Positions 50,861-63,161 of a stretch of DNA of 64,000 nt are shown piece after piece. The translations under genes were made by a program, and so were the position numbers. The stretch comes from Synechococcus sp. (GTDB taxonomy: Bacteria > Cyanobacteriota > Cyanobacteriia > PCC-6307 > Cyanobiaceae): NCBI GenBank assembly GCA_047285535.1, contig JBJBDC010000001.1, forward strand, positions 2,880,136-2,944,135. The letters run 5' to 3'. The notes beneath the pieces are model-generated. The model saw nothing but the letters and a program-made list of their open reading frames with translations. It had not been told where the DNA came from and searched no databases. Within the stretch, counting starts at the first letter, position 1. Each line of letters starts with the position of its first letter.

Positions 50861-53494
50861 ATGGACAATAATCTAGAAAATAAATATTGGAAAATACCAT
50901 CAAGGCTGGTCATCGCTTCTACGATAGTAGCCTTTTTTGGCATTAATGCATGGGTTCAACAGAAAACGACTTTAGAACTGCAGCAAATACAAAATCAATC
51001 TCTCACTGAAACAGCGTACACACTTGCAAGGAATCTAACGAGAGCCCTTGTGATCGATGATTATGCCGATGTAGAAAAGAGACTTGAAGATGTTTTCAAC
51101 GAGAAAGATTATATTCAATCGATTGTGCTTACAAGGCCCAATGGGATTGATATCTTAAAGCTTAGCCGCCTTAATCCTGGTGGTTTAGTTGAGATTGAAT
51201 ATCCAAGTATGTCGCAACAGAAGACTTTTGAAGAGCCTCAAGGTAGTCAGAATAATAGACCAGTTTTAAGTAAAAAAGTATCTGTCAAAGCAGGAACGGC
51301 AAACCTTGGCTCTCTGAAGATTAACTCTTGGAAATCAACGCTTGAAAACCGAGTTGAATTGATAAAAAGTACAATTTTTCTAAGCTCCATATTCTCCATG
51401 TTGCCAGCGTTTGGTGCCATTTTCTATGCTGCTCTGACCCGCAATAGAGCTGAAGTTCATATGATTACAGAAGAGAAGAATAAGCAATTAATGAAAGCAA
51501 ATGTACTTGCAGAAAGTGCAAGTATAGCCAAAACAGAATTCCTTTCTCGAATGACCCATGAGCTTCGTACACCCATGAATGCAGTGCTAGGTATTACTCA
51601 TTTAGCTATGCAAGCAGAACCAGAAGCTCGCCAACTAAATTACCTCAGAAAAATTCAAAAGTCTGGCAATAATCTTCTTTCAATTATCAATGATATCCTT
51701 GATTTTAGTAAAATTGAAGCTGGAAAGTTGACGCTTAATCAATCAACTTTTCTTCTTGCCGAGGTTATTGATGATGTTGTTGGTCTGGTCGCAGATTCTA
51801 TCTTCAACAAAGATATTGAATTTGTTGTAGTTGTAGATCCTCGCATCCCTAACACACTTTGGGGAGATTCTTTTCGCCTTATTCAGATTCTGGTCAATTT
51901 ACTTTCAAATGCCTCAAAATTTACTGAGCATGGAACCATCAGCCTGCGCGCATCAGTTGTCGCCATCAATTCTGAGCAGACGACCCTTCAATTTTCTGTA
52001 CAGGACAGTGGTATTGGCATAAAGAAGGATCAGATCAAGACCTTGTTTGAAGACTTTCAGCAAGCAGAGCCATCAACAACTCGTAAATTTGGTGGCTCAG
52101 GCCTAGGACTCAGTATCTGTAAACATCTTGTTGAGCTGATGCAAGGAAGCATCAATGTTGAGAGTGCGCTTGGAGAGGGGTCTTGCTTCATTGTGAAGCT
52201 GCCATTCGGCGTGCTAGAGCCAGTAGCAACGTCAGAACCAGAGGAGAGGTTTAACTATAAAAATGGTTTGATACTTGCAAGCCATGACTTGCTGAAGGAG
52301 GAGGTCCAGAAAATTCTCAGGCGGTTAGGAATTAACACTGAAATTGCAAAAAATTTAGATGAAATGAGAGTTAATTGCATGACTACTTATGAGAATGCAG
52401 TCCCATACGACCTTATTCTTGTCGATCATTGTCTATTGAATGATGTTGAAGATCTAATCTTTTCCCAGGGCTCTCAAGGCCAGTTCTTGGAGGCGAAGCC
52501 AACAATTATCCTGATGACCATACCGTCTAAGTCAAGAAATTTAATTCAGCTGGATTCAAGTCTTGTTAAAGCGTCGATCTCTAAGCCGATTTTGATCGAA
52601 TCGATGAAGGCCTGCTTACAACAAATAGACACCTCAATATCCACATCTAAGTCCTATAGAAAAACAGAAAATCTAGTTGATACGGTACCAATCAATTGGA
52701 AATTTGATCAACTACGAGTTCTGCTTGTTGAAGATAACCCCATCAATGAAGAAATCTGTCGTGAGCTATTGATGAATGCTGGAATTCATGTTTTCAGCGC
52801 AATGCATGGCAAAGATGCGCTCGAGTGGCTCCAGTTAAATACACCTGCAGGTAACGGGACCACTGCCATGCCTTGTGAGGTAATTCTTATGGACTTGGAT
52901 ATGCCAATCATGAGTGGTTGGGAATGCACTCAACAAATTCGTAAAAATCCTCACTGGTCAGACATACCGATTCTGGCGATGTCGGCCCATGCCATGGAAC
53001 AGGAAAAAAGCCGATCGATGGCGATGGGTTTTCAGGACTACATCACAAAACCCTTTCATCCCAATCATCTTTACGAGCGGATTGAACATTGGAGCAGGAA
53101 GAAAAATTCCAATAGCGTGCAAAATAGTAAACTTCTCGACCAAGAATTATCGATCTCTGGAATCAATACGCAAGAAGCACTGAAACGACTTGGAGGCAAT
53201 CAGAAGCTCTATAAAAGAATGCTTAGGGCGTTTGTTCAGTCGCATGGACAAACTGGTAATACATTGTCAATGTACCTTCAACAGAATGAATGGTCAGACG
53301 CCAAAAGGCTTATTCATACCATTAAAGGCTTGGCCCTGACCCTAGGAATTACAGCCCTTGCAGATAGTTCAAAAGAGCTTGAAAAGCAATTAAAAGCCCA
53401 TCAAAGCCCTCAAGATCTCACGATAAAATTTAATCAAGATTTGATAAAATCAATTGCAGAAATCAAGCAATTTCTGGACGTTGACGAACAATGA
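50861..53494 (+). CDS. Membrane hybrid sensor histidine kinase (2 TM, HisKA, HATPase, degenerate REC, REC, HPt)
   Basis: H-box MTHELRTP, N-box NLLSNASKFT, DSGIG, GGSGLGL, REC LLVEDN...MDLDMP...KP, and HPt HTIKG. Confidence 0.95.
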   Translation: MDNNLENKYWKIPSRLVIASTIVAFFGINAWVQQKTTLELQQIQNQSLTETAYTLARNLTRALVIDDYADVEKRLEDVFNEKDYIQSIVLTRPNGIDILKLSRLNPGGLVEIEYPSMSQQKTFEEPQGSQNNRPVLSKKVSVKAGTANLGSLKINSWKSTLENRVELIKSTIFLSSIFSMLPAFGAIFYAALTRNRAEVHMITEEKNKQLMKANVLAESASIAKTEFLSRMTHELRTPMNAVLGITHLAMQAEPEARQLNYLRKIQKSGNNLLSIINDILDFSKIEAGKLTLNQSTFLLAEVIDDVVGLVADSIFNKDIEFVVVVDPRIPNTLWGDSFRLIQILVNLLSNASKFTEHGTISLRASVVAINSEQTTLQFSVQDSGIGIKKDQIKTLFEDFQQAEPSTTRKFGGSGLGLSICKHLVELMQGSINVESALGEGSCFIVKLPFGVLEPVATSEPEERFNYKNGLILASHDLLKEEVQKILRRLGINTEIAKNLDEMRVNCMTTYENAVPYDLILVDHCLLNDVEDLIFSQGSQGQFLEAKPTIILMTIPSKSRNLIQLDSSLVKASISKPILIESMKACLQQIDTSISTSKSYRKTENLVDTVPINWKFDQLRVLLVEDNPINEEICRELLMNAGIHVFSAMHGKDALEWLQLNTPAGNGTTAMPCEVILMDLDMPIMSGWECTQQIRKNPHWSDIPILAMSAHAMEQEKSRSMAMGFQDYITKPFHPNHLYERIEHWSRKKNSNSVQNSKLLDQELSISGINTQEALKRLGGNQKLYKRMLRAFVQSHGQTGNTLSMYLQQNEWSDAKRLIHTIKGLALTLGITALADSSKELEKQLKAHQSPQDLTIKFNQDLIKSIAEIKQFLDVDEQ

Positions 53495-53523
53495 TGGGGT
53501 CTGTTTTGAGATAGTTTAAGGCA

Positions 53524-53925
53524 TTATTGGCATTTGCAATGGTCTTCGATGCATTGCTTTAAAGCAGTTTTGCTAACAGGCTTCACAAGGACCTCTGCCA
53601 TTCCCGCCTGTAGGCATGTCTCTAATTCATCATCAGCACCGGTGATGCCTACGATTGCTAATTCTCCAAATCTGGCATGGTTTTTGATCATTTGAGTAGC
53701 CTCTAAGCCATTCATTCCGCGCATCATCACATCCATGAAGATGATCTCCCACTCACCCGTTATTGCTGTTTCAACAGCATCCTCACCATTATTGACCACA
53801 GTGACCTGACAATTGAGCTCTTCCAGTAACTCTGCCGTCAACTCTGCAATAATGGCATCATCTTCAACAAGCAGTACGCGATAGCGTTGGTCATTTTGAT
53901 TATTCCATGGAAATTGATTTTCCAT
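53524..53925 (-). CDS. Single-domain (CheY-like) response regulator
   Basis: LLVEDD, FMDVMM..MNG, ITG, VKP; no output domain. Confidence 0.92.
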   Translation of the reverse strand: MENQFPWNNQNDQRYRVLLVEDDAIIAELTAELLEELNCQVTVVNNGEDAVETAITGEWEIIFMDVMMRGMNGLEATQMIKNHARFGELAIVGITGADDELETCLQAGMAEVLVKPVSKTALKQCIEDHCKCQ

Positions 53926-54533
53926 TGATCAACACTTGAAAATGGGTGCTTTAATCAATATTAAAGCATAAATAGTTACGGCAAGTCAATATGAGAGTAT
54001 TTGGTTTACATGTTTCTTGAGCCGGTTTGCTTTCATGTGAATTGAGCTTGATTTTCAGTGTTTTGCCTTAAACCTGTAGGGATGCTGTCTCGACTGATTT
54101 GTTAACCATTTCATGACCGTACAACACGTGCTAGTTAAGGCGATTCTTTCTTTTCATGGCTTCTTGCTGGCAACATGACAATGACTTGATCGCAATTGTA
54201 TTGAGATTGTTGAGACACAATGTTCGGGCATGGTTCTTCGATTTAAGGCGAGAGCCTTGATGGCTTAGGGTGGCTGATGTGCTTGGAATATTTTTGATGT
54301 TTCGGATCTTGCCTTGACAAGAGCAAAGTAATCTTGATTTTGTGCTCCAGTTACTGGTGTGAGTAATGATTCCTCTGTAATAATTATTGTCGCTCCTTGT
54401 AGTCTCTGTTGGGTTCTGAACAGAAAGATGATCTTTGGCTCTCTTGAGATTTCATTGAAGAGAGGTGATGGTGGGTTGTGATTGAGTGATGATATTTTTG
54501 AAAAGCAATCCCAAGGGGATGCTGCTTTGTCTG

Positions 54534-54569
54534 TGACATTCTAGCCAATCTTGGTTGGCTAGAATGTCA
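54534..54569. repeat. Perfect 15-bp inverted repeat
   Basis: TGACATTCTAGCCAA-TCTTGG-TTGGCTAGAATGTCA. Confidence 0.9.
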
Positions 54570-54660
54570 AGAGGTTTTGTTGAAACTGGATTGAAGTTAG
54601 AGGTCTGTTTGTGTGCGCTCAAGGATTGTTCGCCAGAGTACTCTGAAAGGTTGGCATGTG

Positions 54661-54774
54661 ATGGGCCTACGAAAATTGTTCAAGTAAGCTGTCACTTATC
54701 TGCCAGTTGCTCTTGATGACTCGTGGGCTAAGAGAGAACCTAATCAATACGGCGTGAGAATCAAGACTGTTTGA
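54661..54774 (+). pseudogene. Broken second copy of the small gene at 49362
   Basis: MGLRKLFK*AVTYLPVALDDSWAKREPNQYG aligns without gaps to the 49362 ORF; CAA to TAA at codon 9. Confidence 0.85.
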
Positions 54775-54931
54775 CTGATTCTCTGGATAGAGTTGGTTTT
54801 GGCGATAGAACGATTGATTGAACCATGAATAGGCTGTTGAATTGATTGCGAAGTATGGTTTGAGATGAAGATTGATTCCCTTGAAGCTCTAGGGCAAAAG
54901 CACTAGAGTTAACTTTTAATCGGAAGCCATT

Positions 54932-55195
54932 TTGAGTAAAGCTAGCATCCGTCGTTTTATCTTTACCCTGATTACAGGCTACTTGGCTATTTTTGGTGTT
55001 CAGCAGGTTCCTTATGAGTTTCCGAATCAATGGGTCGTACTCATTCCTGTTTTAATCGTCGTCTATATCATAACGGTGTGGCTGGATGGTGTATTTTTTA
55101 AAGATGAGGAGCCTCCACAAAAGATTGCTCCTGATCTGAAAAAGAAAAAGGATCGCAGGCTTGGAAGGAAATCCACAGGATTTGGTGATTCATGA
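54932..55195 (+). CDS. Small two-TM hypothetical membrane protein
   Basis: Two hydrophobic helices and a basic tail ending KSTGFG. Confidence 0.7.
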   Translation: MSKASIRRFIFTLITGYLAIFGVQQVPYEFPNQWVVLIPVLIVVYIITVWLDGVFFKDEEPPQKIAPDLKKKKDRRLGRKSTGFGDS

Positions 55196-55395
55196 CTTGA
55201 GGACTTGTTTGCATGCATTGAGGATTGAACTTTAATGTCATTGATCTCGATATTCGTTGAATCATGTATCGCTGAAAAATGATTGCTTGAGGTGTGTGAA
55301 AGTTGAATTCGTTTGGTAATACTTTTTTAAGCTTTTGCCATGGTATTTCTTTCTCTTGGGGAGGGTATTGTTGATGTTTAGCCAGTGTTGGTATT

Positions 55396-55436
55396 AAAAA
55401 ACCTTGCTTCTCTGGAAAAAAGAGAAACAAGGTTTT
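55396..55436 (-). terminator. Intrinsic terminator after rpsD
   Basis: Minus strand AAAACCTTGTTTCTCT-loop-AGAGAAGCAAGGTTTTTT. Confidence 0.8.
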
Positions 55437-55483
55437 GATGCTGAGCCAAAGAGAAAGTTTTGCGATCCCTTGAAAAGTTGGAT

Positions 55484-56092
55484 CTACACTTTCCTTGAGT
55501 AGTACTCCACCACCAGCAGTTCGTTGATCTCCAGGGCGACCCATTCGCGTTCAGCGCGGCCAATGACCTTGGCGCTGAGTTTGGGTTTGTCGAGTTCAAG
55601 ATGAGGCGGCACGTTGGCCAAGCCTGGAAATTGGAGGTTGGCTTCAGCAAGGAGCTTGCTGCACTTGCGTTCGCGGATTGCGATCACATCACCTGCTTTG
55701 CACTGATAACTGGCAATGTCGGTCACTCGTCCATTGACTGTGACGTGTCCATGGTTCACCAATTGCCGTGCACCGGGCACGGTTGGTCCAAAGCCAAGAC
55801 GGAAACATACATTGTCGAGGCGATTCTCGAGCAGTTTGAGCAGGTTTGTTCCTGTTGAGCCTTCCTGAGCACGCGCTTTCTTCACGTAGCGCACGAGTTG
55901 TCGTTCAGAAACGCCGTAGTTGAAGCGAAGCTTTTGCTTTTCTTCTAAGCGAATTGCGTATTCGGAGCGCTTGCGACGGGCTTGGCCGTGCTGACCAGGT
56001 GGATAGGACCGTTTAGCGGCCTTCCGGGTGAGACCGGGTAGGTCTCCCAAGCGCCGCGTGATCCTCAGGCGAGGGCCGCGGTATCTGGACAT
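55484..56092 (-). CDS. rpsD: 30S ribosomal protein S4
   Basis: [33 protein letters not shown]. Confidence 0.99.
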
Positions 56093-56173
56093 AGGAAAAT
56101 CAATGTAGAAAATGGGTTCGCGCTAGACCGAGAATCCGTCATGCTGGGTAAGTGGCCCGCACTGCGGAATCGC

Positions 56174-56440
56174 ATGCACGAATTGAACATCTTATCGGGC
56201 GGCAGTCCGAACCCCATTAATCGTGCAATCAGCGCGATGTTGCTGGCATTGATCAGGTTGTATCGCCATTGGATTTCTCCTCTGCTTGGCCCCCGTTGTC
56301 GGTTTATTCCTAGTTGTAGTGCCTATGGCATTGAGGCGATTGAACGTCATGGTCCTTGGCGGGGAGGTTGGTTGACGTTCCGTCGGCTTTTGCGTTGTCA
56401 TCCTTTTACTCCCTGTGGTTGTGACCCTGTCCCGGATTGA
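56174..56440 (+). CDS. yidD: Membrane protein insertion efficiency factor
   Basis: [27 protein letters not shown]. Confidence 0.93.
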
Positions 56441-56729
56441 TTCTCGTCGCTTAATTCTTTACAGCCGTTCTGGTTGTTGTCTTTGCGAGGGGCTTGAGCA
56501 GCGCTTGCGGGCTCTCAACCTTGATCAAGGTCAACATCCCTTGCAGCTGGTTGTTTTTGACATCGATGCTCCAGAGTTCTCTGCGGCATTGAAAGCCCGA
56601 TATGACGTCGAGGTGCCTGTCTTGGCTCTAGAAGAAACAGAGCTGCCTCGTGTGTCTCCCAGGCTGAGTGGTGATGGACTCTTGCATTGGTTGCAGAGGG
56701 TTTGCGCGATTGCGTCAGGTTCGGATTAG
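56415..56729 (+). CDS. Glutaredoxin-like protein (DUF836 type)
   Basis: [21 protein letters not shown]. Start is uncertain. Confidence 0.85.
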
Positions 56730-56754
56730 AACACCCATCTGTGGTGACCTAGCG

Positions 56755-58293
56755 ATGACCCAGACACTCCACGCCTTGCTTCATTCGGTGGGTTTTCCTG
56801 TGCCCCAGAGCGTGGCCGATGTAGTGATCGAATCAATCACCTGTGATTCTCGGTGTGTGCGCCCTGGGAGTCTTTTTATCGGTCTTCCCGGCGGGCGTGT
56901 CGATGGAGGAAGCTTCTGGCCCCAGGCTCTTGCTGATGGGGCTGCAGCAGTCCTGATTGGCTCAGACGCAGCTGCCGCGAGGCCTCCTCGACAGAGCGAC
57001 GCTGTGCTGGTTGTGTCTGATCCAGTTGCTCGCTGGGCCGGTGAGTTAGCAGCCGCTTTCTGGAATCACCCCAGTGATCGCATCGGTTTGATTGGAGTCA
57101 CGGGCACCAACGGCAAAACCACGACTACCCATCTTATTGAACATTTGAGCTCGGCCTGCGGGCGTCCTTCCGCCCTGTTTGGAACGCTTCTGAATCGCTG
57201 GCCTGGCCACAGCGTCACGGCGACCCACACCACAGCGGTGGCTGATCGGCTGCAGGCTCAGCTTGCTGAAGCCTCTGCCGCTGGCGCGCAGTTAACGGCG
57301 ATGGAGGTCAGCTCCCACGCCCTTGATCAACATCGGGTCGCTGGATGCCGTTTTTCCGGCGCTGTGTTTACCAACCTCACCCAGGACCATCTCGATTACC
57401 ACGAGACGATGGCGGCTTATTTCGAAGCCAAAGCTCGTCTGTTTGCGCCACCGCTTTCGCCGCCACTGAATGCTGATCATGGCGCTCAATTTGTGGTCAA
57501 TGTGGACGATCCTTGGGGCAAACAACTAGCGGAGCGGTTGGGAGATCGCTGTTGGCGGAGTTCGCTGTCAGAGGGCTCAATTCACGCAGAATTGACAATT
57601 TCAGAGTTGGTGATGGGCCCCTCCGGGGTCGAAGGTCGTTTGTCCAGTCCTCGGGGTGAGGGCTCCTTCCATTCCCCGCTGTTGGGCCGCTTCAATCTGA
57701 TGAACCTTTTGCAGGCCGTCGGGGTCTTGCTTCAGCAAGGTCTTCCTTTGGAGTCGCTTCTGAAAGCAATCAGCACATTCCCAGGTGTTCCCGGTCGAAT
57801 GGAACGGGTTGTTTTGGCCTCAACTCTTGAAGCGCTGCCCACGGTCTTGGTGGATTACGCGCACACTCCTGATGGTTTAAGCAGCGCATTGAGGGCGTGT
57901 CGCCCCTTCGTGGACGGCAAACTGATCTGTGTGTTTGGGTGTGGTGGTGATAGGGACCGTGGCAAGCGTCCGCAGATGGCTGAGATTGCGGCAGAGCTTG
58001 CTGATTGTGTGGTGGTGACCTCTGATAATCCACGCACAGAAGATCCTCAACAAATCCTGGATGATGTTGTCAATGGAATTCCCAGCGGTACTGATTTGGC
58101 TGTGAGGCTGGATCGTGCTGAAGCTATTGCTGGAGCCATTCAGGATGCAGGGCCTAAGGATCTTGTTCTGATTGCCGGGAAAGGTCATGAGGATTATCAA
58201 ATTCTGGGTACCCAAAAAGTTCATTTTGATGACCGTGAACACGCTCTGGAGGCCTTGCAGCAAAAGTATTCAAGTAATGAATCGGCTGATTGA
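56755..58293 (+). CDS. murE: UDP-N-acetylmuramoyl-L-alanyl-D-glutamate--2,6-diaminopimelate ligase
   Basis: [33 protein letters not shown] (DAP specificity), GKGHE. Confidence 0.97.
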
Positions 58294-58309
58294 TTGCTTG
58301 AGTTGTGGT

Positions 58310-59461
58310 TTAGCTAGGGTAATAGAAAAATGCTGCTCCAAAGATTGAAAACATTCCTAGAAGTAAGACTCCCTCTAGCCAATTCGATTGAGCATCCATA
58401 TTTACCAGATTTACGATTAATACACTAAATAATAATGCTATGACTTCAAATGCTGTGAAGTCGAGATTCATTGGTTGGCCGATAAGTGAGCCAATGATGA
58501 TCAGAGCCGGCGCAATCAGTAAAGCAACGAGTAAGCTGGATCCCATGGCTAGTGAAATGGGAAGGTCCATTTGGTTTTTCCATGCTCCTTTGACTGCTGG
58601 CACATATTCTGAAAAACCACCAATAATTGGAATGATAATAATTCCAGTGAATAAAGGACTGAATCCCAATTGTTCGGTGGCAGGCTCAAGAAAATGAACA
58701 AAGCTCTCTGATTGATAAGCTAAGAACGCAGTGCTAGCAATCAATTGGATAATCCAGGCCATTAAATTTGTGCTGCCTTTCACGTCTGATTGTGCAGACG
58801 AAGTTGTTGCGTCGTCCTTCAGGTGATGAGGATCAAACAGATGGCTATGGGTTGCGAGCGAAAAGATGAGGGTCATGAAATAGATGACCATGAGAATCAC
58901 GGCCACTGTTATTGATAAACCGTGAATTGCGACTGGGTCATCAATGCCTGATGTGCTGATGAGAGAGGCAGGGAGTGCCATGGCCATCACGGCTAAAGTC
59001 ATTGCGGCACCATTTGTTCGAACCATGGTGGCTTGAAAGCTTTGTTCGCTATATCTCAGGCCTCCAATCAGCATCGCAATGCCTGTTACAAGCAGAAGGT
59101 CAGAGAGAATCGCGCCAGTAATGCTTGCCTTGACAACATCAATAAGCCCCATTCTGAGGGCAGATAAGGCAATAATAAATTCAGCACAGTTTCCAAAGAC
59201 TGCTGTGCAAATTGCTCCTATGGTAGGTCCACTATGTTCTGAAATCTCTTCTGTAGCATCACTCAGCAAGAGAGCAATTGGAATAATTCCTGCTGCTGAA
59301 AGGATGAAACAAATAATGGTAGGCCAACCTAGGCTTCTCGCTAATTGCGTCAAGACAAGCATGGTTAGCGCTGGTAATAATTTCCATCGACCAGATTCGA
59401 TAAATGAGTTGAGTGGACTCATCTCGTTCTTGTTTTCTGAACTGATTTTATTTGTTAGCAT
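58310..59461 (-). CDS. Ca2+/H+ antiporter (CAX/ChaA family)
   Basis: GNCAE alpha-1 repeat, ASITGAILSDLLL, THSHLF, KNQMDL, SNWLEG; about 11 TM helices. Confidence 0.9.
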   Translation of the reverse strand: MLTNKISSENKNEMSPLNSFIESGRWKLLPALTMLVLTQLARSLGWPTIICFILSAAGIIPIALLLSDATEEISEHSGPTIGAICTAVFGNCAEFIIALSALRMGLIDVVKASITGAILSDLLLVTGIAMLIGGLRYSEQSFQATMVRTNGAAMTLAVMAMALPASLISTSGIDDPVAIHGLSITVAVILMVIYFMTLIFSLATHSHLFDPHHLKDDATTSSAQSDVKGSTNLMAWIIQLIASTAFLAYQSESFVHFLEPATEQLGFSPLFTGIIIIPIIGGFSEYVPAVKGAWKNQMDLPISLAMGSSLLVALLIAPALIIIGSLIGQPMNLDFTAFEVIALLFSVLIVNLVNMDAQSNWLEGVLLLGMFSIFGAAFFYYPS

Positions 59462-59515
59462 CTATTTTGTGTTGTTTTGACTGTTGAATCGACAGGTTTT
59501 GATGCTGGGATTTGA

Positions 59516-60676
59516 TCATGGCTCCCATTGTTGCGAGCCAAAAAAGGTGAGTTCAACATAGTCACTTGCTTGTTTCTTGTTTGTCAAGAAATCAAGCTTA
59601 AATCCGCCTAGATCAACTTTTTTGAGCGACCTGAGAGCCGTGATTAACTTCTCTCTGGTGAGTTGGCCTTTCACTCTTTTTAAGCCCTCTGTTAATAATT
59701 TAGCGGCTATGAATCCTTCTAGACTGGTGTATCCGAATTTTGCAGAGGGATTGTTGTCACGCATCAGCCGTTGATAGTCTGCGACAATTGGAATCCATCG
59801 ATCCCAGGGGAATGGAACAACTTGACTGACCCCGATCCCATTCGCTTGCCCGACAGGCAGAGAATTTTCGAGTGCTCTAGTGCCCACAAAAGAAACGTTC
59901 ATAATCTGAGCTTTGATGTTATGTCGCAACAATGCCTTGCTTAATGCTGCTGAGCTTACATAAGTTGAAATGATAATAACGGCATTGGGTTGAGCCTCTT
60001 TAAGGATTTTAAGTGCAGGTTTAATTTGTGCAGAATTTCTTTGAACAGTTGCAACCGCAACAGGTTTGAGGCCATGTTGTTTGATGGCTAATTCTGCCGA
60101 CCGTAGCCCGTCTTTGCCAAAGGCATCATCTTGATAGATAATTGCGATTTTTTGCCGTGCGTTGCGAACAAGGCTGTCAACAATTTTGTCTATTTCCATC
60201 TTGTAGCTGGCTCGTAGATTGACCACCATCTTCAGGTTGTTGTTTCGAAGCAGAGTCGCGCCCGTCAGAGGAGCTATGAGTGGCACCTTCTTTGCTTCAA
60301 TTAATGGGAGTATTTCCTTGGTTGTTGGTGTGCCTACATATCCAAATAATGCCAAAAGATTAGGCTTTGCAAGTAAAGACTTTGTATTGACAATAGTCAT
60401 CTCTGGCTCGTATTGATCATCGAGGCTGATTAGTTTGATTTTTTTTCCATTGATTCCTCCGGTTCGATTGACTTCATTAAACCAGGCATTAGCGCCAGTC
60501 TTGTATTTTTGGCCAATTTGAGCTGATGGGCCACTGAGCGGAAGTGATTGGCCAAGAAGGATCATATTTTGGCCTTCAGAGGATGTTTGTCGTGTGCTCT
60601 GTTGAGCCGAGGCTGACATAATCGATACAGAAATTCCAATAGCGATGAAGGCATTTCTTATCACTCCCTTCTCCAT
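59516..60676 (-). CDS. Type I periplasmic binding protein (LivK/branched-chain amino acid-binding family)
   Basis: Signal peptide MEKGVIRNAFIAIG...ASA, GQSLPLSGP, GGINGKKI, DDQYEP, VGTPT, YQDDAFG, EGF. Start could be 60676 or 60724. Confidence 0.9.
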   Translation of the reverse strand: MEKGVIRNAFIAIGISVSIMSASAQQSTRQTSSEGQNMILLGQSLPLSGPSAQIGQKYKTGANAWFNEVNRTGGINGKKIKLISLDDQYEPEMTIVNTKSLLAKPNLLALFGYVGTPTTKEILPLIEAKKVPLIAPLTGATLLRNNNLKMVVNLRASYKMEIDKIVDSLVRNARQKIAIIYQDDAFGKDGLRSAELAIKQHGLKPVAVATVQRNSAQIKPALKILKEAQPNAVIIISTYVSSAALSKALLRHNIKAQIMNVSFVGTRALENSLPVGQANGIGVSQVVPFPWDRWIPIVADYQRLMRDNNPSAKFGYTSLEGFIAAKLLTEGLKRVKGQLTREKLITALRSLKKVDLGGFKLDFLTNKKQASDYVELTFFGSQQWEP

Positions 60677-60722
60677 ATGCTTATACAATGAAGGATTCGT
60701 TTGAATTGGTACTTTTGGTTCC

Positions 60723-61961
60723 ATGACGAAGATTCGACGACGGAGAAAGTGGAACATCTTGGCAGTCGCTTCAGTCTTGCTGGCAGCTTTACTTCTTATT
60801 GTTGGAATATCCAGTTTAGATGTAGATCAAGTGCCGGGACGTGATTCCTTGCGCCTTTCTTCAGCTTCTCGTGCTTTAACCACCTCGTTAGAGCGCTTGC
60901 CTCGTGATGGCTGGAGTTCTCAACGAGGGGAGTCTTTAAGTGGGAGTGAAATACAAACTGATCTTGAGGCATTAGATAAGGCTAAATACCACGTGAAGAT
61001 TGGGGTGTATTCAAATAGCATGTATGATCTTGATCTAAGTGTGCCCAGCTTTTCGTCTAGTGGGTATGTGTGGTTGCGATGGGAAAAGCCTCTACAAGAT
61101 TACTTAGAGGCAAATGATAATTCCTTGGAAGAGCATATTCTTCTATTGAATGCTCTTTTGTCTGATGCGGAGCCTGTCTTGAATCCTGTTCAGGATAAGC
61201 CAGCAGTCTTGTCTGATGGCACCTATTATCAACTGTATACCTATGTCGGTAGATTTTTTATTGATCTGACAAGCTTTAGACACTTTCCGTTCCTAAAAAT
61301 TGGGTTGCCAATTGCAATCGAAGCGGATGATGTTGCCGGTGGTCTTGGTTACTCAGAGCTGCGTTTTGAACCCGATATTCGTAATAGTGGTATGGGCCTT
61401 TACGCGGGAAAAGGTATCATCGGATGGCTGAATCGTGGTTGGTCAATTGCTGAGTATCGACATAATTATGCTACCAATTTTGGCTTAGGGGGTTTGGAGC
61501 GAGATTATAGTTTAGTTGTTTACGATATTACATTTGGTACTTCGGCTTGGTCGGCTTTCTGGCGCTTGATGTTGCCTCTCCTTGTTGTCATGGTGATGGT
61601 ACTTCTTGTCTTTAAGATACGTCCAGATGAACAGGATGCTAGGGCTGGTATTCCTGTTACTGTTTTGTTGACGTTGGTGTTTTTGCAGCAAGTGTATAGA
61701 GGGGAGTTGCCTGATCTTCCCTATTTAACTTTTTTGGATTCTGTTTATGTGATTGCTTATGTCATCACACTGTTTGCATTTGTGTTGTTAGTGTGGATTG
61801 GTCGTCGTTATGCAGATATGGAAAATATGCCCCTTGGAGAAATGCGTGACAAGCTGTCTCATCGGCTTGAAACTCTTGATCAAGTATGGCCCCTGATGAT
61901 GGTATTGTTTTGCACAATTGCCGTGCTTCTTGCTTGGTATTTGATTCCTGCAGCGGCTTAA
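60723..61961 (+). CDS. Pentameric ligand-gated ion channel (GLIC/ELIC-like Pro-loop channel)
   Basis: N-terminal hydrophobic segment; beta-rich domain VKIGVY...GYVWLRW, DGT, FRHFPF, GW; four TM helices with M1 Pro (LMLP), M2 ARAGIPVTVLLTL, M2-M3 loop LPDLPYLTFLD and M4 Pro. Confidence 0.88.
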   Translation: MTKIRRRRKWNILAVASVLLAALLLIVGISSLDVDQVPGRDSLRLSSASRALTTSLERLPRDGWSSQRGESLSGSEIQTDLEALDKAKYHVKIGVYSNSMYDLDLSVPSFSSSGYVWLRWEKPLQDYLEANDNSLEEHILLLNALLSDAEPVLNPVQDKPAVLSDGTYYQLYTYVGRFFIDLTSFRHFPFLKIGLPIAIEADDVAGGLGYSELRFEPDIRNSGMGLYAGKGIIGWLNRGWSIAEYRHNYATNFGLGGLERDYSLVVYDITFGTSAWSAFWRLMLPLLVVMVMVLLVFKIRPDEQDARAGIPVTVLLTLVFLQQVYRGELPDLPYLTFLDSVYVIAYVITLFAFVLLVWIGRRYADMENMPLGEMRDKLSHRLETLDQVWPLMMVLFCTIAVLLAWYLIPAAA

Positions 61962-61970
61962 ATTATCTCT

Positions 61971-63161
61971 TTATGCTAATTCTTTAAGGGCATTCATTAG
62001 CGCTGAAATTTCTTGTTCTTGCGTGGTGATATGGGTGCAGGCTCTTAAGCAAATTGGCTCCTCGAGGTTGCGGATCCAGATCCCCTTATTGCCAAGCATT
62101 TGTACGATTTCAGAAGTGCTTTTGTTTGACTTGGCGTCGAGTTTGAAACTTACGAGTCCCGCAGGTGGTTCTCCTTCGAGTAATGGAGTGGTACCTCGAT
62201 GCCTATTGAGTTGTTCCCACAGCTGACTACTTAAGTTTTGAATTTTTTTTAGTCTCATCTCAACATTTCCCTCTTCCTCTAATAAATTCAATGATTGTCG
62301 TAATCCTGCCATGAGAGGTACGCAGCTCGTCGCGATTTCAAAGCGCCGGCTGTCGTGGTGGAAGGGGTCTGGATCATTCATAATCGCGCGGGTTTCATCG
62401 CGAAGGCTGCGCCAGCCGATCATGGTTGGATTGGCTTCGTTAAGCATGCGTTCTGATAGGGCCACACCTCCAAGTCCTTCGGGGCCGCAGGCCCATTTGT
62501 GTCCAGTGAAGGCATAGATGTCTGCAGCCTGTGCTGCTTCTTTCACAGGGATCTGCCCCATGGTTTGGGCTGCATCCACGAGCAGATAGGGATGCTGAGG
62601 ATGGGCACGAAGATGGTCCGCAACAGCGGCGATGGGCATGAGTTGTCCTGTATTCCAGAGCAGATGGGAGAGCACCACCAATGTCGTGCGTGGCTGGAGT
62701 GATTCCTCCAGAGCCTTGATCACGCTTGCGTCAGTATCGCTTTGTGCTTCACGGCCTCGTCTCAACCCTTGCACAGGAAGTTTGTCGATGGCTAGCTCTT
62801 CACGCCTGGCGAGTTCATGGCAAGCGGCCACCACCCCTGGGTGTTCGCAATCACTGATCAAGATGCGATCACCAGCTTTGAAGGGAAGCCCCCACAGAGG
62901 TAGGACACATCCACTGGTCACGTTTTCGCTCAGGGCAAGGCGATGAGGTGCGACACCGCATAAGCGAGCTAATAACCCTCGCGTTCGATTGGTTTCCCTA
63001 CTGATGAAAGGCCACACATCGGTGGTGAAAGGCCCGAGCTCCTGGATGCGATGCCAACTTGTGGCCATAGCTTCTAAAGAAGGCGTAGGAAGTGGTCCCT
63101 GACCTCCGAAGTTGAAGTAGGTCTTATTCGTGAGTGCTGGACAGAAATCTTTGAACGACAC
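61971..63161 (-). CDS. Class V PLP aminotransferase (cysteine/cystine lyase or desulfurase-like)
   Basis: YFNFGGQGP, SDCEHP, DAAQ, FTGHKWACGP. Confidence 0.9.
   Translation of the reverse strand: MSFKDFCPALTNKTYFNFGGQGPLPTPSLEAMATSWHRIQELGPFTTDVWPFISRETNRTRGLLARLCGVAPHRLALSENVTSGCVLPLWGLPFKAGDRILISDCEHPGVVAACHELARREELAIDKLPVQGLRRGREAQSDTDASVIKALEESLQPRTTLVVLSHLLWNTGQLMPIAAVADHLRAHPQHPYLLVDAAQTMGQIPVKEAAQAADIYAFTGHKWACGPEGLGGVALSERMLNEANPTMIGWRSLRDETRAIMNDPDPFHHDSRRFEIATSCVPLMAGLRQSLNLLEEEGNVEMRLKKIQNLSSQLWEQLNRHRGTTPLLEGEPPAGLVSFKLDAKSNKSTSEIVQMLGNKGIWIRNLEEPICLRACTHITTQEQEISALMNALKELA

Follow-up and report, generated by a model that had tools for sequence, protein, structure and literature searches.

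Genes of the Locus

The DNA considered here (the window) is a stretch of 64,000 nucleotides from a marine Synechococcus sp. of the family Cyanobiaceae (assembly GCA_047285535.1, contig JBJBDC010000001.1, positions 2,880,136 to 2,944,135). This report concerns a pair of genes in it, of which one encodes a pentameric ligand-gated ion channel (pLGIC) and the other, placed head to head with it, a LivK-fold periplasmic binding protein. A gene for a CAX Ca2+/H+ exchanger follows on the strand of the binding protein, and the three genes are flanked by murE and a class-V aminotransferase gene (Table 1). A first-pass annotation of this DNA had placed the three open reading frames (ORFs) and their two flanking genes in the same way, and we confirm all of them; the gap from the CAX start to the binding-protein stop is 54 bp, where about 55 bp had been noted. 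The three genes are indeed AT-richer than their surroundings, with a G+C content of 0.431 (CAX), 0.433 (binding protein), and 0.436 (channel), as against 0.56 in murE, 0.52 in the aminotransferase gene, and 0.525 in the entire window.

The longest ORFs of the binding protein and the channel overlap by 35 bp. A real overlap was considered and dropped: the true start of the binding protein is likely M28 at 60676, giving 386 aa, which is the form on record (P0270, P0271). With M28, the start used by other gene callers, 46 bp lie between the two start codons, and the promoters must therefore sit within the adjoining coding regions. The 46-bp spacer holds no NtcA-type GTAN8TAC site, and a promoter and terminator scan of it gave no promoter-like excess, the counts being the same as in shuffled sequences.

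Table 1. Features of the locus in window coordinates (G and L numbers denote genomes and loci of the survey).
Feature	Position	Strand	Basis
CAX Ca2+/H+ exchanger	58310..59461	-	TIGR00378, 328.9 bits; sole CAX match in own genome
LivK-fold binding protein, longest ORF 413 aa	59516..60757	-	Peripla_BP_6, 1.6e-52; PDB 4kv7, 3lop
pLGIC (Pro-loop receptor), 412 aa	60723..61961	+	phmmer to ELIC, AlphaFold2, Foldseek
Spacer between divergent start codons, 46 bp	60677..60722		Sequence and 386-aa form
Stretch missing in sister genome G135 (L015)	59408..61867		tblastn, blastn
murE, left flank	56668..58293	+	TIGR01085, 513 bits
Class-V aminotransferase/cysteine-desulfurase-like, right flank	61971..63161	-	PF00266, 1.2e-32

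The Channel

The first-pass annotation had assigned the GLIC/ELIC family fold to the channel and had proposed profile searches for its two Pfam domains and for the binding protein. The binding protein passed Peripla_BP_6 (PF13458) clearly (179.7 bits against a cut-off of 31.7; E 1.6e-52), whereas the channel scored 24.4 bits with Neur_chan_memb, under the cut-off of 28.1, and had no match to Neur_chan_LBD in the Pfam profile search. We assign the channel to the pLGICs despite this miss, because three other lines of evidence agree. Residues 84-365 were aligned by phmmer to ELIC over both domains (E 4.9e-6). The AlphaFold2 (AF2) model, built from 66 relatives, has four helices after a beta-sandwich (mean predicted local distance difference test, pLDDT, 89.1; predicted template-modeling score, pTM, 0.82). 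Foldseek, queried with this model, returned GLIC, ELIC, and sTeLIC at E ~1e-19 with a target-normalized template-modeling score of 0.77, the best figure being that of GLIC 4ila (E 1.7e-19). The fold given in the first-pass annotation is thus upheld, and, judging from sequence and model, the 412-aa protein is a pLGIC of the GLIC/ELIC fold for which a pentameric state and ligand gating are predicted.

The N-terminus carries a basic stretch and a hydrophobic helix (residues 4-31), followed by a linker of ~50 residues, the extracellular beta-sandwich domain (about residues 74-273), and the transmembrane helices M1 (275-296), M2 (304-326), M3 (337-368), and M4 (373-407). Invariant residues in the 66-sequence alignment (A1) include N143, P189, P285, L316, P330, and D339. 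P189 belongs to the FPF motif of the Pro-loop, which aligns with the FPF of ELIC, and P285 is the M1 proline; the conserved extracellular-domain residues W117 and W120 are retained along with the Pro-loop. The window channel thus resembles ELIC, GLIC, and sTeLIC in fold, FPF Pro-loop, M1 Pro, 9' Leu, the LPxLPY M2-M3 loop, the four transmembrane helices, and the short M3-M4 loop. It differs from them in sequence, with an identity to the solved channels of only 17-19% and a Pfam score under the cut-off, in its N-terminal extension of about 85 residues (helix and linker), and in having a dedicated, co-inherited binding-protein gene.

With position 0' set from the ELIC alignment, M2 has D305 (-2'), A306 (-1'), R307 (0'), T313 (6'), and L316 (9'). 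Judging from D(-2'), A(-1'), and R(0') together with the invariant 9' Leu, and from the comparison of the -2' Asp with the Glu of GLIC at this position, the channel is probably cation-selective. This assignment does not extend to Ca2+ permeability.

The Binding Protein

The nearest solved relatives of the binding protein are of the Liv type (4kv7, 1.4e-55; 3lop, 2.5e-51), and its sequence, read directly, shows a signal peptide (site ASA-QQ) but lacks a lipobox Cys. The subfamily was aligned with Escherichia coli LivJ and LivK, the LivJ numbering having been checked on the sequence. The LivJ residues compared here hold the main chain of the amino acid. In this alignment, which is uncertain at 18% identity to LivJ, Ser79 and Tyr150 correspond to an invariant Thr143 and to Phe213 and may be counted as kept; Tyr202 corresponds to Thr265, beside a nearly invariant Tyr266; Thr102 corresponds to an invariant Gly166; and Glu226 corresponds to an invariant Ser289. 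On the basis of this comparison, we do not endorse an amino acid or amide as the ligand, which the first-pass annotation had suggested. The Peripla_BP_6 fold and the signal peptide are shared with LivJ/LivK and the HAAT proteins, whereas the Glu226 and Thr102 replacements, the motif QVVPFPW, and the lack of a LivHMGF partner set the window protein apart. Invariant R182 and R240 are further marks of the subfamily.

Databases label the protein "ABC transporter substrate-binding protein," ABC standing for ATP-binding cassette. No ABC permease or ATPase is found next to it among the ORFs of the window, as had been noted before, and in the genome as a whole (3.03 Mb) the BPD_transp_2 (LivH/LivM-type) genes form one adjacent couple only. 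This couple is UrtB and UrtC according to NCBIfam and lies beside UrtA (590 bits), UrtD, and ureG; that is, it has a binding protein of its own. For annotation in practice, we consider that proteins of this subfamily, in spite of their database name, probably have no ABC transporter to serve.

Linkage of the Two Genes across Genomes

Each window protein was used to query 301 genomes of the family. The channel has matches in 107 of them, often as several paralogs, and the binding protein in 55. Metagenomes, too, appear to contain hundreds of relatives of each of the two proteins. Of the 55 places with a channel ortholog (>=46% identity), the binding protein is the immediate, divergent neighbor in 50, which represent 48 genomes, since G176 and G113 hold two tandem pairs each. 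The neighborhood survey that had been recommended for the three genes shows, for the binding protein and the channel, adjacency far beyond chance. Two of the five exceptions (G238 and G287) have a truncated channel match and were treated as not assessable; the other three are considered below. Seen from the side of the binding protein, 55 of 69 matches adjoin a channel, 12 belong to a third clade, and 2 are fragments. All 49 full-length matches of the orthologous clade adjoin a channel, and none occurs without one.

The surroundings of the pair vary. In other genera (L017-L024) it lies beside an ABC1 kinase gene, often with OKR_DC (Orn/Lys/Arg decarboxylase) near and with regulators and malQ further out. 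Many of the other channel paralogs (27-42% identical; L025 and L026 were inspected) have no binding-protein neighbor at E<=1e-20. In the phylum-wide search, channel matches outside the family are at most 33% identical and start no earlier than residue 49, in most cases at 73-95; two such loci (L052 and L053) were inspected, and neither showed a binding-protein gene beside that of the channel.

Two unpaired paralogs (about 40% identical) were seen at L026:2899-6798 and L025:1816-7232. One is divergent from a Tll0287-like PAS/heme gene and lies beside agmatinase-family and spermidine-synthase genes; the other is downstream of genes for a pyridoxal-phosphate-dependent decarboxylase and an MFS transporter. 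These polyamine and decarboxylase genes, and the OKR_DC gene near the main pair in other genera, are a weak hint of amine ligands.

Co-duplication and Loss

In a second, paralogous pair, with identities to the window proteins of 37-41% (channel) and 38-43% (binding protein), the two genes are likewise adjacent, here in convergent orientation, in all five places of its subclade (G080, G277, G286, G248, and G294). They are in different transcription units, the binding-protein gene coming after hrcA and the channel gene after a PALP-enzyme gene, which indicates that the adjacency does not depend on a shared promoter.

Trees of both proteins (quick IQ-TREE) were calculated for 33 pairs, 28 divergent and 5 convergent. 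The identities to the two window proteins correlate with a Spearman coefficient of 0.91, a descriptive figure because related genomes are not independent. The two trees have 25 of 30 bipartitions in common, including every well-supported branch (14/14 for the channel, 18/18 for the binding protein), while 1000 random relabelings gave 0.15 common bipartitions on average and never more than 3. Both trees recover the convergent clade as one and the same group, and both divide the tandem double pairs of G176 (L023:6073-12649, with an ABC1 kinase gene between the pairs) and G113 (L037:907-7437) between the same two clades. From these mirrored paralogous lineages we conclude that the pair duplicates as a unit.

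Loss is seen in the sister genome G135, whose locus (L015) is collinear with window positions 56000-59407 and 61868-63144. The absent 2.46 kb comprise the binding protein and channel codons 1-383, and what is left of the channel gene is a 3' remnant, its final 29 codons (72% identity). In marine picocyanobacteria, the two genes are thus passed on, lost, and duplicated together.

Relation to Known Systems

Reporting of ligand occupancy by a bilobed module to a membrane signaling protein is familiar from MBP-Tar, LuxP-LuxQ, TorT-TorS, and the ionotropic glutamate receptors. The pair described here differs from all of these in that the proposed output is a Cys-loop-type channel, and we found no experimentally shown binding-protein-dependent Cys-loop-type channel in the literature.

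A genetic coupling of the two kinds of protein was predicted earlier. According to Tasneem et al. (2005; PMC549065), N-terminal fusions of class-I periplasmic binding protein (PBP-I) domains to pLGICs occur in alpha-proteobacteria, pLGIC neighborhoods contain stand-alone PBP-II or Cache proteins, and there is a Na+/H+ symporter operon in Microbulbifer; such modules were proposed to cooperate with the channel in chemosensing, and the cyanobacterial channels were described as having a simple architecture. The statement of the first-pass annotation that some bacterial members carry fused periplasmic-binding domains agrees with these fusions. Its idea of a receptor-like unit is partly supported, namely by the linkage of the pair, and is not new in kind, since cooperation was already proposed in that article. 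Like those systems, the window pair couples a periplasmic binding module genetically to a pLGIC with a predicted role in chemosensing; it differs from those described there in having its class-I (LivK-type) module unfused, as a protein by itself, in occurring in cyanobacteria, and in being co-duplicated. The pair is a coupling of the type predicted in 2005, for which we found no test in the literature, in a new form with a separate class-I protein.

Jaiteh et al. (2016; PMC4795631) listed Synechococcus and Prochlorococcus channels; "periplasmic," "operon," and "neighbo" do not occur in that paper. Our literature search, in which supplements and figures were not covered, found no paper describing this pair beyond the general prediction of 2005.

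A fused protein of another kind was seen in G406, a genome of another class of Cyanobacteriota. On contig C47 (L047:4201-6828, + strand), an 875-aa ORF joins a signal peptide, a pLGIC extracellular domain, M1-M4, and a C-terminal SBP_bac_5 domain (residues 457-744, 3.3e-31), which would be periplasmic. The C-terminal SBP_bac_5 contrasts with the N-terminal PBP-I of the fusions reported in 2005. The ORF is possibly a product of a frameshift or misassembly, as the assembly has 730 contigs and 6% contamination.

Proposed Function and Alternatives

We favor, with fair confidence, the view that the two genes form a cassette in which a transporter-less LivK-fold binding protein is the soluble ligand-sensing accessory of a homopentameric, probably cation-selective pLGIC. 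In favor of this view are the folds of the two proteins, their linkage, co-duplication, and joint loss, the lack of a transporter, and the natural fusions. The role of accessory is given to the binding protein because its clade was only ever seen with the channel, whereas the channel occurs three times without the binding protein. That the two proteins are functionally coupled in some way we regard as likely. The binding protein would capture a small periplasmic solute, and the loaded form would dock on the extracellular domain of the channel, or pass the solute to it, and shift its gating, so that the presence of the solute would be translated into ion flow or an altered membrane potential. 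Different copies of the cassette would probably sense different ligands. Direct docking and gating by the binding protein is a tentative mechanism to which we give a little less than an even chance. A complex prediction with two copies of the extracellular domain (32-282) and the mature binding protein (55-413) gave scores of 0.39, 0.22, and 0.25, compared with a mark of 0.32, and speaks neither in favor of binding nor against it.

Several observations weigh against the accessory function. G049, G156, and G208 have an intact channel ortholog in complete context and no binding-protein match, nor does tblastn (E<1e-5) find a remnant beside these channels (L012-L014), so the channel is not strictly dependent on its partner. 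The congruence of the trees is partly what any linked, vertically inherited genes would show, and its informative part is the mirrored paralogy only. The Glu226 equivalent, as far as the LivJ alignment at 18% identity can be trusted, is an invariant Ser. No fused channel forms of this subfamily were found among longer proteins, which is weak evidence, and the matches listed in the Protein Atlas comprise pLGIC-like clusters only, without a fused architecture. A distant ABC partner is also possible in some genomes, for among the other complete genomes with the pair (n=5), G047 and G069 carry additional permease pairs of the LivHM type at a distance from the cassette. The remaining three (G230, G281, and G022) fit the favored view better, each having a single LivHM-type permease pair, possibly Urt. 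As a separate observation, a 262-aa ORF without a Pfam match fills the divergent position in G156 (L012:4909-5697, - strand).

The first-pass annotation had gone further and included the exchanger, CAX, which would reset Ca2+ or pH; in such a three-gene module, the binding protein would sense and the channel would admit Ca2+. The exchanger itself is not in question, since it passes the equivalog TIGR00378 (328.9 bits against a cut-off of 211.15) and has PF01699 (Na_Ca_ex) in two stretches. The gene order CAX, binding protein, channel is collinear in six genomes, the three genes have a common low G+C of about 0.43, and a cation-selective pore is plausible. These six genomes (G000, G080, G109, G268, G277, and G286), however, all belong to the one genus g1, and no CAX gene was found near the pair in the loci read from other genera, where the pair lies beside the ABC1 kinase and OKR_DC genes. 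At E<=1e-20, CAX is without a match in four genomes that carry the pair (G004, G066, G230, and G281), and in two more (G282 and G225) it lies on other contigs. Conversely, CAX stands alone between murE and the aminotransferase gene in G135, and a CAX 85% identical to that of the window occurs without the pair in G298, a genome of another genus, at another locus (L016:6635-7792, near sodN and trpC). In most genomes of the family, CAX is only about 45% identical to that of the window, and this pattern suggests that a low-G+C variant moved laterally. CAX thus assorts independently of the pair and is a neighbor peculiar to one genus, not a conserved member of it. The three-gene module is largely refuted by this independent assortment, and we consider it very improbable.

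The binding protein might also be an ordinary receptor of an ABC importer (Urt or another HAAT system) with a distant permease gene, in which case co-regulation or shared history alone would account for its place beside the channel. The database name, the Liv-type nearest solved relatives, and the extra permease pairs of G047 and G069 would fit this explanation, and the components of the cyanobacterial Nat system (nat) are scattered in the genome. On the other hand, the Synechococcus genome of the window has UrtBC as its only couple of LivHM-type permeases, with a cognate UrtA, the adjacency to the channel in 55 of 69 matches outlasts a change of orientation and repeated duplication, and the orthologous-clade binding protein is never found without the channel, so we regard an importer function as unlikely. 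About equally unlikely in our view is a scavenger role, in which the binding protein, without docking, would only enrich or buffer periplasmic ligand, which then binds the orthosteric site of the channel. Such a role was proposed for PBP neighbors and fusions by Tasneem et al. (2005). It agrees with the persistence of the channel without a partner in three genomes and with the retention of W117, W120, and the Pro-loop. A freely diffusing high-affinity binder would nevertheless be expected to leave less free ligand for the channel instead of more, and the fusions tether the binding domain to the channel, which suggests contact.

The accessory function may be one instance of a wider scheme. Marine picocyanobacteria may have a family of two-part receptors of the neurotransmitter type in which a soluble LivK-fold subunit directly gates a Cys-loop-type cation channel, in which duplications provide a repertoire of specificities, and from which a sister clade was recruited to a Bestrophin-like (PF14023) putative channel; as a whole, we hold this to be somewhat doubtful.

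Other Observations

The third clade of binding proteins (42-47% identical, 12 matches) has no adjoining pLGIC. In all three of its loci that were read (L009:5426-8396, L011:4234-7240, and L010:4275-6214), a gene for a Bestrophin-like (PF14023) membrane protein directly follows, and PstS-like PBP_like_2 genes, an OprB porin gene, and a gene for a CHAD protein are neighbors. This clade may represent a second pairing of a binding protein with a channel, inside a phosphate-acquisition island.

Elsewhere in the window, a second stretch of low G+C (0.38-0.45) lies at 52000-55500, upstream of rpsD; the ORFs listed there for the six frames are all short and overlap one another.

Implications

Although GLIC and ELIC are the structural models for the human neurotransmitter receptors, the search for what bacterial pLGICs bind and do in the living cell continues. 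A co-inherited binding protein without a transporter is a direct experimental handle on the ligand of such a channel. If the recruitment to channels is as proposed, the whole binding-protein subfamily would serve channels and not ABC importers. If the binding protein does gate the channel, the pair would be the first binding-protein-dependent Cys-loop-type receptor and a parallel to the glutamate receptors, where binding module and channel are fused, and it would reveal a fast electrical route of chemosensing in phototrophs that rank among the most abundant in the ocean.

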